Positions 9,208 through 14,179 of a DNA stretch of 14,852 nucleotides are shown here, in pieces (the stretch's first letter is position 1; each line of letters starts with the position of its first letter). Origin of the DNA: a virus. Location: UHGV virus genome UHGV-1731069; one strand, 5' to 3'. The notes under the pieces were generated by a model. It did no database searches and was not told where the DNA came from. It saw only the letters and a program-made list of their open reading frames with translations. The position numbers and the translations under genes are program-made.

Positions 9208-9275
9208 ATCAATGACTCCGTACGCAATTAAATTATTACCAATTTAACCACATATGATTTATTTATCGTAGGTAG

Positions 9276-9304
9276 TTGACATTTAACGCACGAATTATTA
9301 CCTT
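9276..9304 (+). promoter_or_regulatory. Candidate sigma70-type promoter reading toward the tRNA
   Basis: Perfect -35 TTGACA (9276-9281), 17-bp spacer, then TACCTT (9299-9304), which matches the three most conserved -10 positions. Lies in an AT-rich tract with a 10-bp direct repeat AATTATTACC at 9231-9240 and 9293-9302. Confidence 0.25.
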
Positions 9305-9635
9305 TCAGGTAAGTAAAGGGTTCATTCCGGTTATTAACCTGACTGGCTTGTCGTTAAATTGAACAGGTGGAGTGAGCTTTTATTTTGAGCAGTACGGCGT
9401 ATGGCACATGCGCCGATAGCGGTCTGGATACGTTTAAGGGGCACCCTCCCTTGCTCGGGCAAACGAACCAGGTAGCTGGAATGTGCAAGTCGAGCGGTTT
9501 TATTCCGCGCGCGGGGATTCACCATCCCGGCGATTCGGTGTGACGCCTCGGAAGAGACGAGGGTACAACGATGAGAGCATTTATGGAGCTGCGACAAAGT
9601 GTGGCGCACTTAACAGGCTAAGTGCTCTCAGCGTT

Positions 9636-9712
9636 GTGGCATTAGCTCAGTTGGACAGAGCAACCGCCTTCTAAGCGGTTGGTCGCAGGTTCGAATCCTG
9701 CATGCCACGCCA
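9636..9712 (+). tRNA. tRNA-Arg (anticodon TCT, reads AGA), argU-like, phage-encoded
   Basis: Hand-folded cloverleaf: acceptor GTGGCAT/ATGCCAC, D-stem GCTC/GAGC, anticodon stem ACCGC/GCGGT with loop CTTCTAA (anticodon TCT), T-arm GCAGG-TTCGAAT-CCTGC, discriminator G and encoded CCA. Closely resembles E. coli argU as I recall it but with a different acceptor stem. Confidence 0.9.
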
Positions 9713-9755
9713 GAATCACGCCTAAGGACCGTGATGCCAGAAGTTCCAGGGGCTT

Positions 9756-9797
9756 GGCGGTGATGGTTTCCCTTGAAGGACTATCACCGCCCTTTTT
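9756..9797 (+). terminator. Intrinsic terminator-like hairpin downstream of the tRNA
   Basis: 9-bp perfect stem GGCGGTGAT / ATCACCGCC with an 18-nt loop, followed by CTTTTT. Confidence 0.45.
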
Positions 9798-9875
9798 ACA
9801 GCAGGACGCCATTGCGATGACTTCATGCTGTAAACCAGTACAGCCACGGAAGGCATAACTCATTGCTTCCAGTTC

Positions 9876-9899
9876 GCCCGGTTCGCCGGGCATTTTTTT
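9876..9899 (+). terminator. Intrinsic terminator-like hairpin immediately upstream of the 139-aa ORF
   Basis: GCCCGG-ttcg-CCGGGC (UUCG tetraloop), then A and seven T. The SD AGGTGA (9901-9906) and ATG 9911 follow directly. Confidence 0.55.
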
Positions 9900-9910
9900 A
9901 AGGTGAGATC

Positions 9911-10330
9911 ATGAAGACAATTGATATGTTGGCTAAGTATCTAAATGAATGGCCATTAAAATATTCTCGTATCGTTCAGGCTGAAGACTGCATTTTTTAT
10001 GGCGTTTTTGCTGATAATGAAATGCATTACGAAGTAATTCAGAGTGAGGGACTGGCCGGGTTAACTCTTAGCGAAGACCATGGTACTAGCGTTACGTTCC
10101 ATGACTGGATAACAGCACAACGTTCTGAAATGGAAAAAGGCGATGTGTTTGATATTTCTCGCGCTGTTTACGCTAAAGCAAAAAGTGATAATGATTACAT
10201 GAGCGAACACTTATACAACATGAAGTTACAATGCCTGCATGCGGCGCTTATTCAGAATGGGCACTTCGATAAAACAAGTGCCATCAATATTGCGGAAGCC
10301 ATCAACGCTGGATTTAATGCCATTAAATAA
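9911..10330 (+). CDS. Hypothetical protein, moron-like accessory gene of unknown function
   Basis: 139-aa ORF on the opposite strand to all flanking genes, with SD AGGTGA 4 nt before the ATG and its own downstream terminator. Hand count gives about 30-37 percent G+C over the first 110 nt, clearly below the flanking structural genes. No recognisable catalytic motif or transmembrane segment. Confidence 0.6.
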   Translation: MKTIDMLAKYLNEWPLKYSRIVQAEDCIFYGVFADNEMHYEVIQSEGLAGLTLSEDHGTSVTFHDWITAQRSEMEKGDVFDISRAVYAKAKSDNDYMSEHLYNMKLQCLHAALIQNGHFDKTSAINIAEAINAGFNAIK

Positions 10331-10333
10331 CAC

Positions 10334-10347
10334 CGTGACATGTCACA
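10334..10347. repeat. CGTGACATGTCACA, containing the perfect 12-bp palindrome GTGACATGTCAC (copy 1)
   Basis: Read directly; lies between the stop of the 139-aa ORF and its terminator, 74 nt from the large terminase stop. An identical 14-mer is at 12599-12612. Confidence 0.6.
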
Positions 10348-10350
10348 AAC

Positions 10351-10377
10351 AGCCAGCCGATGAGCTGGCTTTGTTTT
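10351..10377 (+). terminator. Intrinsic terminator of the 139-aa ORF
   Basis: AGCCAGC-cgatga-GCTGGCT followed by TTGTTTT. Confidence 0.6.
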
Positions 10378-10420
10378 ATCCTCATCAGAGGATATCAACG
10401 ACATTATCCCCACCAGCGGA

Positions 10421-11896
10421 TTAAGCATAGGGATCGTAATCTGTGATGGCCTTGCCTTGCTGGTTCTGCTGCCCGGGAATTCGCAGACGCTTCGACACAG
10501 GAAAAGCAAACGTCAGCAGTAGCGCATCGCCTTTACCCGGCGAACGCCCAAGCCGCTCCTTGATATCTTCCTTCGGTTCGATAACGATTTTACCGTCCAC
10601 GCGAACTTTGTACTCTGCCGCCGACAGGTCGTCTGCAGTTTCCTGGTCATCCAGCATGCCGCCCAGCCTCAGCCATGTCTTACATGAGTTGAACATCTCC
10701 CCACGCTTGTTGAGCATCTGCGGGTCAGTAGACGCGCCACCGAACGGAACAAGTTGCCATGTACGACCCCAGCCGTCACCGATTGACTTCAGACCAGTTC
10801 CGTAACCGAAGTCGATGAACACTGCGTCAGCCTGGTACTGGTCTTCAAAGTCAGCGATACGCTTCGCCATAATCAGATCGTCAGTGGTCTTGTTGCCAGT
10901 CCACAGCACCTTACTGTGCAGCCCCTGCCGCAGGTATATCACAGCGTCATCAACGCCTGAGTATGCCGGGTCAACGCCGATTATCACCGGAGCATGTGCA
11001 ACCTGCGCAGCGGTGACCACCCGTTTCATTGCCTCGTCAGTAAGTCCGGTAGGGATAAACTGCAATTCAGATGCATCCGGGAATATGCCGCGCACACGGA
11101 TTTTAACGAAGTCGCTGTCTTCCCCGTAGTCATCAACCCATTTCTGCAACTGCTGTTTGTTGGTGCCTTCCACCGTCCGGCTGTCAATCTGCGCAGTTTT
11201 CCAGCGGTGTTTATATTTGCGGAAACATTCGCGGAAACGTCCGGTATTACGCGTCGGGTTTCCGAACGCCACCCAGATAATCTCAGTGTCTTCGTCCGTA
11301 AGCGCACCCTCAGCAACTTCCCACACCAGATCCGCAATGTTCGACGCTTCATCGAATACCACGATGATGCGTTTGCGCTCGTTGTGTAGTCCGGCGAATG
11401 CCTCAGTGTTGTGCTCAGACCAGGGGATTGCGTCAGCTCGCCACCGCTTGTCGTGCCCAGGATCATTGCTGTACATCGCGGTAGCGGTACAGGTAAACCA
11501 GTCTTTCGTGATAGCAAGGTTCGACCACTTGATAATTTCCGGCCAGGTCTTCGTTCGTAGCTGGTTGTCGGTGTTGGCAGTCACCACGACCTTACAATCC
11601 TCGCAAGTGGACATGCCCCAGTTGATCAGCATTGAGATGAATGCGGATTTACCAATACCGTGACCAGAAGCGCGTGCCAGCATAAGCGGCTGATAGCGCG
11701 TCTCTGGATTCTGCAGGTGATCACGTATCTCTCGGAACGCATCAGCCTGCCACTGACGTGGGCCGGTGGCATGTGCCAGTTCAGTCCCCTCTTCCCCCCA
11801 CGGGAACGCATAGAGGGCATAGCCAAGCGGATCGTGAGTGAACCCTGCAATATCCTCGATCAACTGCTCTTCAGGAGATAACGCTGTATCTGTCAC
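10421..11896 (-). CDS. Terminase large subunit
   Basis: 491 aa with Walker A-like ARASGHGIGKS, Walker B-like IIVVFDEAS, and a C-terminal nuclease-like region (VIIGVDPAYSGVDDAV). GTG start at 11896 overlaps the small subunit stop (GTGA); there is no in-frame ATG nearby. Confidence 0.85.
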   Translation of the reverse strand: MTDTALSPEEQLIEDIAGFTHDPLGYALYAFPWGEEGTELAHATGPRQWQADAFREIRDHLQNPETRYQPLMLARASGHGIGKSAFISMLINWGMSTCEDCKVVVTANTDNQLRTKTWPEIIKWSNLAITKDWFTCTATAMYSNDPGHDKRWRADAIPWSEHNTEAFAGLHNERKRIIVVFDEASNIADLVWEVAEGALTDEDTEIIWVAFGNPTRNTGRFRECFRKYKHRWKTAQIDSRTVEGTNKQQLQKWVDDYGEDSDFVKIRVRGIFPDASELQFIPTGLTDEAMKRVVTAAQVAHAPVIIGVDPAYSGVDDAVIYLRQGLHSKVLWTGNKTTDDLIMAKRIADFEDQYQADAVFIDFGYGTGLKSIGDGWGRTWQLVPFGGASTDPQMLNKRGEMFNSCKTWLRLGGMLDDQETADDLSAAEYKVRVDGKIVIEPKEDIKERLGRSPGKGDALLLTFAFPVSKRLRIPGQQNQQGKAITDYDPYA

Positions 11897-12489
11897 TGAT
11901 TACCATCCTGACGTTCTTTGAGTCGCTTCCTGGCTGCTGCTATGCGATCAGCAATTGTCACATTCACATTAACATCCAGACGTTCTTTGAACGCGTTGAC
12001 ATCAACATGCTTACCAATCAGCTCAAGGTTCTTCACCTTGTCAGGCCATTTAATTTTTTTGAGGATTGTCTCTATCGAATCCTCGTTCATGTTCATGATG
12101 GTCGATGACAGATCAAAGCCACTAAGCGTAGTGCGCCAGATTTTCGGCCACTCACGGATTGGTTTAAGGCTCCCATCGTCGTTGAGGATATCGATCACGT
12201 CCATCTGGTCGATCTCCACCAGGCGCATGAGAACGTAATCAGCACTGACGCGCATTCGTTTGTTGCGCTCCTCCATCAACTCGGCAATCCGTTTTTGAAT
12301 GCGTTCATCGCGCATCATGACACTGGCTTTAACTGCCGCTGTATTTGGGGAGAATCCTGCATTAATCGCTGCCTGAGTCTGGTTTTCAGGCGTTTTGATG
12401 TATGACTGGCAATAAGCCTCCTGCATTGCTGTTAGTGGCTTAAATTGCGTTGATTTGCGTTTATAGGTTTTAGGTTCAGCAGGCATCAT
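11893..12489 (-). CDS. Terminase small subunit (Terminase_2-like)
   Basis: Helix-turn-helix region QEAYCQSYIKTPENQTQAAINAGFSPNTAAV...RIQKRIAELMEER is typical of Terminase_2-type small subunits as I recall them. The ORF track starts at TTG 12567, but that extension contains a terminator hairpin and direct repeats; the ATG pair at 12489/12486 follows GGTGG. True start is probably 12486 or 12489. Confidence 0.75.
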   Translation of the reverse strand: MMPAEPKTYKRKSTQFKPLTAMQEAYCQSYIKTPENQTQAAINAGFSPNTAAVKASVMMRDERIQKRIAELMEERNKRMRVSADYVLMRLVEIDQMDVIDILNDDGSLKPIREWPKIWRTTLSGFDLSSTIMNMNEDSIETILKKIKWPDKVKNLELIGKHVDVNAFKERLDVNVNVTIADRIAAARKRLKERQDGNQ

Positions 12490-12496
12490 AACCACC

Positions 12497-12525
12497 GTGG
12501 TAATAGTTACCGTTGTGGTAATAGT
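12497..12525. repeat. Two 11-bp direct repeats GTGGTAATAGT just upstream of the terminase small subunit start
   Basis: Copies at 12497-12507 and 12515-12525, between the upstream terminator and the start codon. Could be protein-binding sites; function unknown. Confidence 0.4.
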
Positions 12526-12530
12526 ACCAT

Positions 12531-12558
12531 GCAAAATAAAGCCGCCATAGTTGGCGGC
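12531..12558 (-). terminator. Intrinsic terminator separating the accessory operon from the terminase genes
   Basis: In the minus transcript: GCCGCCA-acua-UGGCGGC followed by UUUAUUUUG. Confidence 0.55.
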
Positions 12559-12598
12559 AGTATTCAAAACCCATCAAATTCATCATGCATAATCTACT

Positions 12599-12612
12599 CG
12601 TGACATGTCACA
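12599..12612. repeat. CGTGACATGTCACA, containing the perfect 12-bp palindrome GTGACATGTCAC (copy 2)
   Basis: Identical 14-mer to 10334-10347; overlaps the TGA stop (12608-12610) of the upstream minus-strand gene and lies upstream of the terminator and terminase start. Confidence 0.6.
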
Positions 12613-12946
12613 CTATTAATTTCGTTTCATGCCAGCCTTTAGTCACCCAGCATTGCGAGTCACCATTACACGGGCATGAATTCACAGGAACTCTCTCGCC
12701 GCACTTACCGCAACGTTTTCTGCCGATCGATTTTATACGCCCGTGCGCGCGAGCATCATCCTGGCGGATAAGTAACGCAATATACTCACCAAATTCGTAA
12801 GGCACACGCCCGGGGCGACGCGTGGCGCAGTTCCGCTCCAGCATTTCAATTTCCTGAGCATCAAGCACAATCTCCAGCTTACGTACACCGGATGCAGCTT
12901 GTCTGGCTCTCTGAGCGGCTTTGCGCTCTGCTGCTGATTTAGCCAT
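12608..12946 (-). CDS. Putative small DNA-binding protein: ribbon-helix-helix-like N-terminus plus C-terminal Cys-rich zinc-ribbon-like tail
   Basis: 112 aa, ATG at 12946. RKLEIVLDAQEIEMLERNCATRRPGRVPYEFGEYIALLIRQD has the strand-helix-helix pattern of RHH (Arc/CopG-type) domains; the C-terminus has CGKCG...CPCNGDSQC. Family assignment is pattern-based and tentative. Confidence 0.45.
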   Translation of the reverse strand: MAKSAAERKAAQRARQAASGVRKLEIVLDAQEIEMLERNCATRRPGRVPYEFGEYIALLIRQDDARAHGRIKSIGRKRCGKCGERVPVNSCPCNGDSQCWVTKGWHETKLIV

Positions 12947-13289
12947 TCTGATTTTCCTGCATCATGAGAAATACAATCATGGCGGCTCGGAGTGGATTAT
13001 TCGCATGAAAGCAAATGTTCTCAGCATTAAAAACAGCTGACCACTCACCGCGAGAGTGGTGGCAGGTTAGACTGATTTTATTATCAACAATAATAGGCCA
13101 TGCATCCGATGGATTATTGCAGTAGTCAGGTAAAGGGTTTAATGGCTCAAAAGTTGTATCAGTATTTCCGTAATACCATTTGTTGGTGTTATTCCCTGAT
13201 GTTTCCGGTTTACACGCCCAAAGGCCTTTAAAAATTATGTCTCCTACCATTCTGTTAATTTCAAAATCACTTAACTGTGAATAGTCCAT
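12939..13289 (-). CDS. Hypothetical small Cys/His-containing phage protein
   Basis: The ORF track starts at GTG 13292; the ATG at 13289 overlaps the upstream stop (TGATG) with GGAGG 7 nt upstream. Overlaps the downstream gene by 8 nt. Vaguely resembles small DUF-type proteins of lambdoid nin regions, but not confidently. Confidence 0.5.
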   Translation of the reverse strand: MDYSQLSDFEINRMVGDIIFKGLWACKPETSGNNTNKWYYGNTDTTFEPLNPLPDYCNNPSDAWPIIVDNKISLTCHHSRGEWSAVFNAENICFHANNPLRAAMIVFLMMQENQNG

Positions 13290-14179
13290 CACTTCACCTC
13301 CTGCGGCGGTTCTGGTAGAGGCATCCAGTGAGTTACATGTGCCCCGTAATGATTCCAGAACGACGCAACTGGCGCACTGTCTCCATCAGGGACAACCCAG
13401 TAATCGTGATGAACTTTATTATTAAGCCCATCAAACACCAGATACTCTTTACAACTTCCGGGAATGTTCTCAGGCATTCGCTCACTACAGCTTATCCAAC
13501 CATCCGGAGTTACCGGAACTTGCGGAATGGCTGTCTGCTCTCGAACGTCATTAGGCGCTATAGGTTCTGCTGCCAACTGACTGGCATATTTGTTAATGGT
13601 AACGATAAGCTCTTGCTCAGCCTCATCCAGACAATCACCGATACCTCGCCTGTCACCGTCAAAATCATCGAAATCGGCACGAATCTTGGCAACCTTCTGG
13701 ATTGCGGACAACACCTCACTAGGAATTACCGGATAGTTGGTTGACGTTTCCGCGATTTCCCGAAAATTATTGGTTGACGAATTCTTGTTTTCCCGAAAGT
13801 TTCCGGACTGAAGCATGGCGGCGCGGCAGGCGTTCCAGCCTCTCACCTCTGCAATAGCGGCAACAGCATCAACCGCGTACATGCTAAGAGGATTAGGCAT
13901 TGGTTTTTCTTCCGGTACTACTGGAACGGGGGGAGCGGCGTAGACCTCAATAATTCCATTATCAATAGGCCATTCTCCATCCTTGAGGTAGTCACTTGTG
14001 CCGTCAACTTGCTGTTCTGCAATGTGGAATGCACCTATTGGTTTTGCTTCCAGCGATGCCAGAGCAATTCGTGCCAGTTCTTCCGCTTCTTCTGCTGGCA
14101 GTACAACGTTGCTATCAGGTCCGTATGTTTCGCGCCACTGCTTGATTGTCAGCAGTCGCTCTTTGGTAATAGTGGTCAT
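13289..14179 (-). CDS. DUF551-like phage protein
   Basis: 296 aa, ATG at 14179 with AAGGAGAG upstream. The C-terminal motif WNHYGAHVTHWMPLPEPP matches what I recall as the hallmark of DUF551 domains in temperate-phage early regions. Confidence 0.55.
   Translation of the reverse strand: MTTITKERLLTIKQWRETYGPDSNVVLPAEEAEELARIALASLEAKPIGAFHIAEQQVDGTSDYLKDGEWPIDNGIIEVYAAPPVPVVPEEKPMPNPLSMYAVDAVAAIAEVRGWNACRAAMLQSGNFRENKNSSTNNFREIAETSTNYPVIPSEVLSAIQKVAKIRADFDDFDGDRRGIGDCLDEAEQELIVTINKYASQLAAEPIAPNDVREQTAIPQVPVTPDGWISCSERMPENIPGSCKEYLVFDGLNNKVHHDYWVVPDGDSAPVASFWNHYGAHVTHWMPLPEPPQEVK

Follow-up and report, generated by a model that had tools for sequence, protein, structure and literature searches.

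A ribbon-helix-helix protein with a predicted zinc module and a palindrome at the 3' end of its gene: a candidate boundary regulator of epsilon15-like phages

Results

The gene and its palindrome at the end of the early operon

The window analysed here is the whole 14,852-nucleotide stretch of the virus genome UHGV-1731069, and the subject of this study is a minus-strand open reading frame (ORF) at positions 12608–12946, which starts with ATG and encodes a protein of 112 amino acids (aa), together with the palindrome in which it ends. Every long ORF of the window lies on the minus strand, and the region resembles the epsilon15/phiV10-type podoviruses (genus Uetakevirus), namely ZX5, HEMP4 and TL-2011b, at 92–97% identity. 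Read in the sense direction, the gene order is Ead/Ea22-like, DUF551, NinX, the 112-aa ORF, the terminase small-subunit gene (terS), terL, a moron on the opposite strand, and the portal and head genes. The NinX-family ORF upstream (12939–13292, minus strand; PF10765, E 1.2e-16) overlaps the 112-aa ORF by 8 nt at its stop end. The TGA stop codon of the 112-aa ORF (12608–12610) lies within a perfect palindrome, GTGACATGTCAC (12600–12611), and the palindrome is kept at the same place in close relatives. A preliminary description of the window, which had placed the stop codon inside the second copy of a palindrome, was thus correct on this point, as it was in calling the gene the last one before a terminator and the terminase. 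The 112-aa ORF is the final ORF ahead of a predicted intrinsic terminator, T1 (12532–12560, minus strand), which consists of GCCGCCaactatGGCGGC and a T tract, with the stem at 12558–12541 and then TTTATTTTG. T1 closes the early operon and is kept in other genera, with the compensatory variant ACCGCC/GGCGGT. Beyond it, terS (11893–12486, minus strand; PF03592, E 1.4e-29; start as annotated in relatives) opens the next transcription unit.

Protein family and predicted fold

The 112-aa protein was assigned to PHROG 536 (E 2.9e-53), which is labelled 'transcriptional regulator', and the databases label the family likewise. Its counterparts are phiV10 gp55 and epsilon15 gp49, and N15 gp46 belongs to the same family at 35% identity. 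The homologs, found in phages of Enterobacterales, Vibrionaceae and Aeromonas, fell into 696 clusters when grouped at 90% identity and into 186 when grouped at 50%. Their length and residues were conserved, and the ORF is for this reason a real gene. The literature search returned nothing on the function of the family, on N15 gp46 or on the ZX5 copy of the gene.

No Pfam or NCBIfam model matched the 112-aa protein above the cutoff and the PDB held no sequence match; when curated ribbon-helix-helix (RHH) models were applied, only one or two of 56 family members gave weak matches to RHH_5, RHH_1 or RepB-RCR_reg. An AF2 prediction from a shallow alignment yielded a poor model (pLDDT 60.6), which was superseded by a model built from an alignment of 64 sequences with 27–96% identity (pLDDT 85.3). 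The latter comprises a basic helix (residues 5–18), an extended segment (approximately 21–28), a helix (30–42), a long helix (52–74) and a compact Cys-rich module, with a pLDDT of about 90 over residues 70–100. The N-terminal basic helix (approximately residues 4–19; 12890–12937, minus strand) carries the conserved R8, K9, R13 and R15. The segment that follows (12749–12889, minus strand) forms the RHH core, with the strand, the helix and the long helix joined as in the beta-alpha-alpha fold of the RHH (CopG/Arc/MetJ) superfamily, the loop between the helices (RRPGRxPY) being unusually long. The Cys-rich tail is a Cys4 site and a predicted zinc module (12650–12712, minus strand), arranged as C79-x2-C82, C91/C93 and C99, followed by the conserved W100 and GWHE. 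C79 and C82 were present in 56/56 members and C99 in all but one (55/56); one or more additional Cys residues lay between them in all 56. The AF2 fold and the near-invariant Cys residues support the earlier suggestion of an RHH domain paired with a zinc ribbon. Taken together, the model points to a small phage DNA-binding protein, presumably dimeric, in which an RHH domain is combined with a Cys4 zinc module. Foldseek searches against PDB and BFVD gave no informative neighbour of the model, and none for the Cys4 module; the top structural match of the model was MatP.

Linkage of the palindrome to the gene

The association between the gene and the palindrome was evaluated in 80 diverse loci from a genome scan, which represent different species and prophage loci with homologs at 50–79% identity; eight loci fetched separately extended the set to 88. 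The motif GTGAC-NN-GTCAC occurred in 80 copies in 68 of the 80 loci, in comparison to 11 copies for the runner-up among palindromes of the same 5-N2-5 design and a mean over half-sites of 0.92. In all 80 copies the spacer was 2 bp, versus no copies with 1, 3 or 5 bp. The centre was AT in 67/80, the flanks prolonged the symmetry to Y...R, and non-palindromic centres were found in both orientations (GT five times, AC three times). Most of the copies were located 0–40 nt beyond the stop codon of the homolog, and 50 of the 88 loci had a palindrome in the interval that runs from 15 nt ahead of the stop to 120 nt past it. The palindrome also covers the stop codon of the Enterovibrio homolog, which has 31% identity, in locus L092, and that of N15 gp46. 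ZX5, epsilon15, N15 and the Vibrio phage K303 each contain three exact palindromes, with a chance expectation of about 0.04 or fewer per genome. Within the window alone, three palindromes with up to two mismatches were counted against 0.79 expected, which is not significant (12 of 200 shuffles reached three); the enrichment across genomes is overwhelming.

The reverse test was made on 120 stretches of viral contigs picked only for GTGACATGTCACGG: 46 encoded a homolog within the stretch and another 20 resembled ZX5 or N15, while 74 of the 120 had no homolog within the stretch. We also noted that GTGACATGTCAC occurs within coding sequence for C-V-T-C-H-G zinc-knuckle motifs in unrelated viral contigs (among L181–L300; L189, L218 and L281), and raw motif counts therefore include coding coincidences. 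The genes around the cassette were completely exchanged in the 80 loci: NinX was absent from 80/80, and a Terminase_2-type terS followed in only 16/80. Since the gene and the symmetric site remain adjacent despite this mosaicism, the simplest reading is that of a protein and its operator, and the palindrome looks like the binding site of the 112-aa protein. A comparison of beta-strand residues with palindrome presence revealed no clear covariation, and no mention of the palindrome motif was found in the literature.

Placement of the palindromes

The second exact palindrome of the window (10335–10346) is located between the terL terminator and the stop codon of the opposite-strand ORF139; this post-terL position is kept in many relatives, and the cargo beyond it varies. 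In epsilon15 and ZX5, one copy lies at the stop codon of the 112-aa homolog, upstream of T1; another follows directly on the terL terminator and is separated by 4 nt from the stop codon of the convergent moron; and the third covers the stop codon with which the structural operon ends, directly ahead of an annotated terminator. Read along the gene that ends there, all three copies show the order stop codon, palindrome, terminator. Across the 80 loci, a terminator-like site was found within 60 nt of 49% of the palindromes, in comparison to 17–19% of random positions or ORF stops. Other placements included positions 9–20 nt upstream of a start codon, among them that of terS in Vibrio phages. In N15 (L179/L180), GTGAC-(TG/CA)-GTCAC sites were found at record positions 28550, 33237 and 39269; one of the three lies over the gp46 stop codon, one between gene 33 and the terminator upstream of the anti-repressor operon, and one inside repA. 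LexA-box (CTGT-N8-ACAG) promoters with umuD-like or other morons directly followed the palindrome in ten loci of several genera (L099, L100, L105, L106, L129, L133, L136, L137, L141 and L176).

Two promoter arrangements were considered and rejected. In the window, the palindrome could supply the −35 element of a lone promoter-like match (GTGACA-N18-CATGAT, 9/12). Its −10-like piece falls within positions 12564–12586 (minus strand), a 23-nt remnant, ATGATGAATTTGATGGGTTTTGA, of a 62-aa ORF, as comparison with close relatives revealed. Because this segment is a deletion remnant and is filled by an ORF in many relatives, the match is not a conserved feature. The full 62-aa ORF lies between the palindrome and T1 in many close relatives, and a different ORF occupies this interval in a group with 84% identity. 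A role of the palindrome as an upstream activator site at a fixed distance was rejected as well, since the spacing between it and candidate promoters ranges from about 44 to 800 nt.

Probable prophage-repressor operators ahead of terS

The preliminary description had suggested DNA-binding assays on the GTGGTAATAGT repeats; a role of these repeats as a target of the 112-aa protein, or as an RNA structure, was rejected. Two 17-bp palindromes of the ATTACC-N5-GGTAAT type stand in tandem here (12488–12504 and 12506–12522), and the repeats are their overlapping halves; the palindromes are invariant across genera. The epsilon15 record annotates the same motif as prophage-repressor binding sites, and the GTGGTAATAGT repeats therefore belong to the prophage repressor system and not to the 112-aa protein. 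The tandem palindromes at 12488–12522 are probably prophage-repressor operators, judged by this match of motifs. In epsilon15 and ZX5 the motif forms clusters that flank the repressor gene, and it also stands ahead of terS, the portal operon and the tail-fibre gene, and a palindrome of this type is also located ahead of the portal operon in the window (9297–9313). This distribution suggests that every late unit has a start of its own under direct repressor control. As the predicted leader hairpin does not vary, covariation is uninformative about it either way.

Comparison with known systems

The strand-helix-helix arrangement behind a basic arm, and a short palindrome suited to binding by a dimer, are shared with RHH regulators such as P22 Arc and Mnt, CopG, ParG/omega and the N-domain of TraM. 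The 112-aa protein differs from them in its long inter-helix loop, its fused Cys4 module and the lack of a Pfam RHH match at threshold, and its putative operator stands at the gene's 3' end and recurs at the ends of other operons. RHH regulators as such are a familiar class; no description was found of an RHH-Cys4 fusion, an operator at the 3' end, two to three copies at operon ends or matS-like half-sites.

AlpA-type proteins are small DNA-loaded antiterminators. The antitermination cassette of lambdoid Q consists of the Q gene, a binding element, a promoter and a terminator. With it, the locus shares a last or last-but-one early gene, a putative DNA site directly downstream, a terminator ahead of the late genes and, beyond, moron cargo that is hypervariable. 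Neither by sequence nor by fold is the 112-aa protein related to the Q families (PF03589, PF06530 and PF06323); unlike in a Q cassette, neither a promoter nor a sigma-dependent pause is conserved at the site, the extra sites lie far from any promoter, and the family occurs beside a canonical Q in N15, L089 and L090.

The half-sites of the phage palindrome are identical to those of the 13-bp matS consensus, GTGACRNYGTCAC (PMC6907758), and the spacer is 2 bp instead of 3 (80 copies versus none). Unlike MatP, the organiser of the E. coli Ter macrodomain, the 112-aa protein is phage-encoded within an early operon and lacks the four-helix bundle and the coiled coil, having one N-terminal helix and the zinc module. 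Homology to MatP (PF06303 / PF17414) was not supported by hhalign (probabilities of 0.2% and 0.07%), for which the MatP profile was shallow because the homolog search gave only near-identical sequences, and MatP_C was not among the 25 listed Pfam matches of family members (40 families were matched in total). Because the spacing differs and no profile homology was found, a MatP-like role is treated below as a rival explanation and not as a family assignment.

With regard to the C4 zinc fingers of DksA/TraR, the three best matches of the family profile in the PDB were YbiI and TraR. The alignment spans the long helix and CxxCGxxxP...C, at non-significant E values of 0.06–0.08, and the Cys spacing of the family differs from the CxxC-x17-CxxC of DksA/TraR. 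The hhalign probability for this relation was 20%, PF01258 was absent from the listed Pfam matches of family members, and the fold searches gave no support; for lack of backing from these three sources, the TraR/YbiI match is only a lead.

Discussion

We tentatively propose, at somewhat less than an even chance, that the 112-aa protein is a site-specific regulator acting at the boundaries of transcription units and favouring read-through into the late genes. The protein, with its basic helix, RHH core (a presumed dimer), long helix and Cys4 zinc module, would bind DNA sequence-specifically, and its putative operator would be the 12–14-bp palindrome YGTGAC-AT-GTCACR, which starts inside the stop codon of its own gene. 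The gene and the site form a conserved cassette, placed distally in the early operon, and the extra copies of the site lie at other transcription-unit ends, often just ahead of an intrinsic terminator. The protein would accumulate as the last early product and then occupy the palindromes. Once bound, it would alter what RNA polymerase does on reaching the boundary and would most probably aid its passage through the adjacent terminator or terminators into the late genes. Such a mechanism would follow the logic of DNA-loaded antitermination known from lambda Q and AlpA, and the zinc module would be the candidate for the contact with the polymerase.

Several observations speak for a Q-like role. 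The gene is the last or last-but-one early ORF with the site directly downstream, and a strong terminator precedes the first late gene in the window and in Serratia, Enterovibrio, Vibrio and Salinivibrio phages without a recognised Q; the position as last early gene and the terminator before the late genes were found together in the window and in L005, L007, L091 and L092. In the early regions compared, the 112-aa family was the only protein common to the Serratia and Vibrio-type loci; further elements common to these loci are the palindrome and the motif ACCAC(G/A)AAATG, which adjoins a −35-like hexamer. The latter motif, or CAC-N5-GTG, is present in two copies abutting a −35-like TTGAC in L005 (5640–5700), L007 (5415–5460), L091 (4580–4625) and L092 (4420–4480), and is followed in these loci by a leader and a strong terminator and then by the holin gene. 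It was not found in the window, ZX5 or N15.

Other findings weigh against read-through as the function of the protein. A canonical Q gene is also present in N15, Citrobacter L089 and Dickeya L090, and the family is therefore not simply 'the' late antiterminator. The late units of epsilon15-like phages each open with repressor-operator-like palindromes, which suggest late promoters of their own, so that read-through of T1 may not be required. The promoter-like sites of the Vibrio and Serratia loci lie below the scan threshold, and none reaches it in L005, L007, L091 or L092. The geometry is loose as well: the palindrome has no fixed position relative to any promoter, its distance to the terminator ranges from 23 to about 230 nt, and no conserved promoter or pause element was found between the two in the relatives compared. 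The DNA beyond the gene-adjacent palindrome is hypervariable and may contain terminators, LexA-box promoters with umuD-like or other morons, AlpA-like or DUF4224 genes, small ORFs or terS. Approximately 15% of the loci have no palindrome within 5 kb, another factor could bind the palindrome, and Pfam searches of the 112-aa protein and family members revealed no similarity to known antiterminators.

The identity of the half-sites with matS bears on an unlikely, though not negligible, explanation, in which a MatP-like DNA organiser or bridging factor binds the two to three palindromes per genome for compaction, for help in replication or packaging, or for interplay with host nucleoid systems, the intergenic location near terminators being incidental. 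MatP is the top structural match of the model, but the 2-bp spacer and the absence of profile homology tell against a family assignment. That the protein is a repressor or activator of the conventional kind, binding an operator to control nearby promoters, or that it regulates its own gene, is rather unlikely. The RHH fold is typical of the phage repressors Arc, Mnt and CopG, the database label reads accordingly, and the palindrome lies 2–7 nt upstream of a −35 hexamer in L099, L100 and L106. These promoters are, however, strong LexA-box promoters of morons with variable spacing, and the distance from the palindrome to a candidate late promoter varies from about 90 to 800 nt; the location of the site at the 3' and not the 5' end of the gene makes classical autoregulation unlikely. 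A further explanation is a roadblock or termination enhancer (insulator), in which the bound protein would halt RNA polymerase at operon ends, back up the terminators and shield convergent units. The order of stop codon, palindrome and terminator, which includes two convergent junctions, the nearness to terminators and the indifference to downstream content would all suit it. We consider it improbable, since intrinsic terminators are already there and palindromes also lie 9–20 nt before terS or other starts, where a promoter will not fit and essential genes would be blocked; a permanent roadblock is unlikely where the site lies directly ahead of terS.

That the palindrome is the site of another phage or host factor, or a recombination boundary that hitch-hikes with the gene, is likewise improbable. 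Palindromes are found at junctions of conserved and variable DNA, in the 74 of 120 stretches without a homolog, and in one subgroup that keeps them despite an altered beta-strand sequence. Against this, the linkage to the stop codon holds in Enterobacterales, Vibrionaceae and N15 in spite of the full turnover of neighbours, and many of the homolog-less stretches are short, are other copies of the same phage types or contain the C-V-T-C-H-G coding coincidence. An RNA-level regulator (N-like or Com-like), whose basic helix and/or zinc module would bind the transcribed hairpin GUGA-CAUG-UCAC beside terminators or Shine-Dalgarno sequences, has a small chance at best. The palindrome is transcribed in 3' untranslated regions just ahead of terminator hairpins and often abuts the next Shine-Dalgarno sequence, and the N terminus is rich in arginine and lysine. 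Against this stand the perfect dyad symmetry of the palindrome, its invariant bases without compensatory covariation and the non-palindromic centres in both orientations; the 4-bp stem would be very weak, and RHH is a DNA-binding fold. Finally, the preliminary description had considered that the protein could pair with the upstream ORF in a two-gene module and act in it like an antitoxin. This ORF is NinX, which is absent from all 80 loci and replaced by an ASCH-domain gene beside the homolog in phiV10; no PADLOC match and no conserved adjacent partner were found in any lineage. The toxin-antitoxin reading is refuted as a conserved module and is extremely improbable otherwise. On the whole, the earlier interpretation is partly supported.

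In the records examined, no late-gene switch is annotated for epsilon15/phiV10-type phages, including prophages of E. coli O157 and O103, and the N15 record assigns no function to gp46. The protein-plus-site cassette is a concrete candidate for the handling of the early-to-late boundary. The family and its sites are present in epsilon15-like podoviruses, N15-like telomere phages, Vibrio siphoviruses and many enterobacterial prophages. It is possible, although we regard it as rather doubtful, that they represent an undescribed and widespread gene-plus-site system, being either a new class of small DNA-loaded antiterminators at operon ends or a phage counterpart of MatP/matS with orthogonal spacing. 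The identity of the half-sites with those of host matS raises the question of cross-talk with, versus deliberate avoidance of, the Ter-organising system of the host. In practical terms, the 12-bp motif can serve as an annotation marker for such prophages, and it flags junctions with morons, such as tRNA genes and LexA-controlled genes, e.g., umuD-like genes.

Other features of the window

The opposite-strand moron occupies positions 9208–10420, between terL and the portal operon, and contains tRNA-Arg(UCU) (9636–9712, plus strand), several plus-strand terminators and ORF139 (9911–10330, plus strand), which corresponds to PHROG 4846 with no assigned function. At the 3' end of ORF139, the stop codon is followed after 4 nt by the palindrome at 10335–10346 and then by the terminator T2 (10351–10370, plus strand), which lies 4 nt from the palindrome and is common to terL (minus strand) and ORF139 (plus strand). 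Upstream of NinX, the ORF at 13289–14179 (296 aa) has a C-terminal DUF551 and N-terminal segments that match several different PHROGs, which gives it a mosaic look; its weak PADLOC match to PglZ (E 8e-4) is probably spurious. This DUF551-containing ORF also holds a 32-nt imperfect direct repeat at 13737–13801 (TTGGTTGACG...TTTCCCGAAA, 78% identity).
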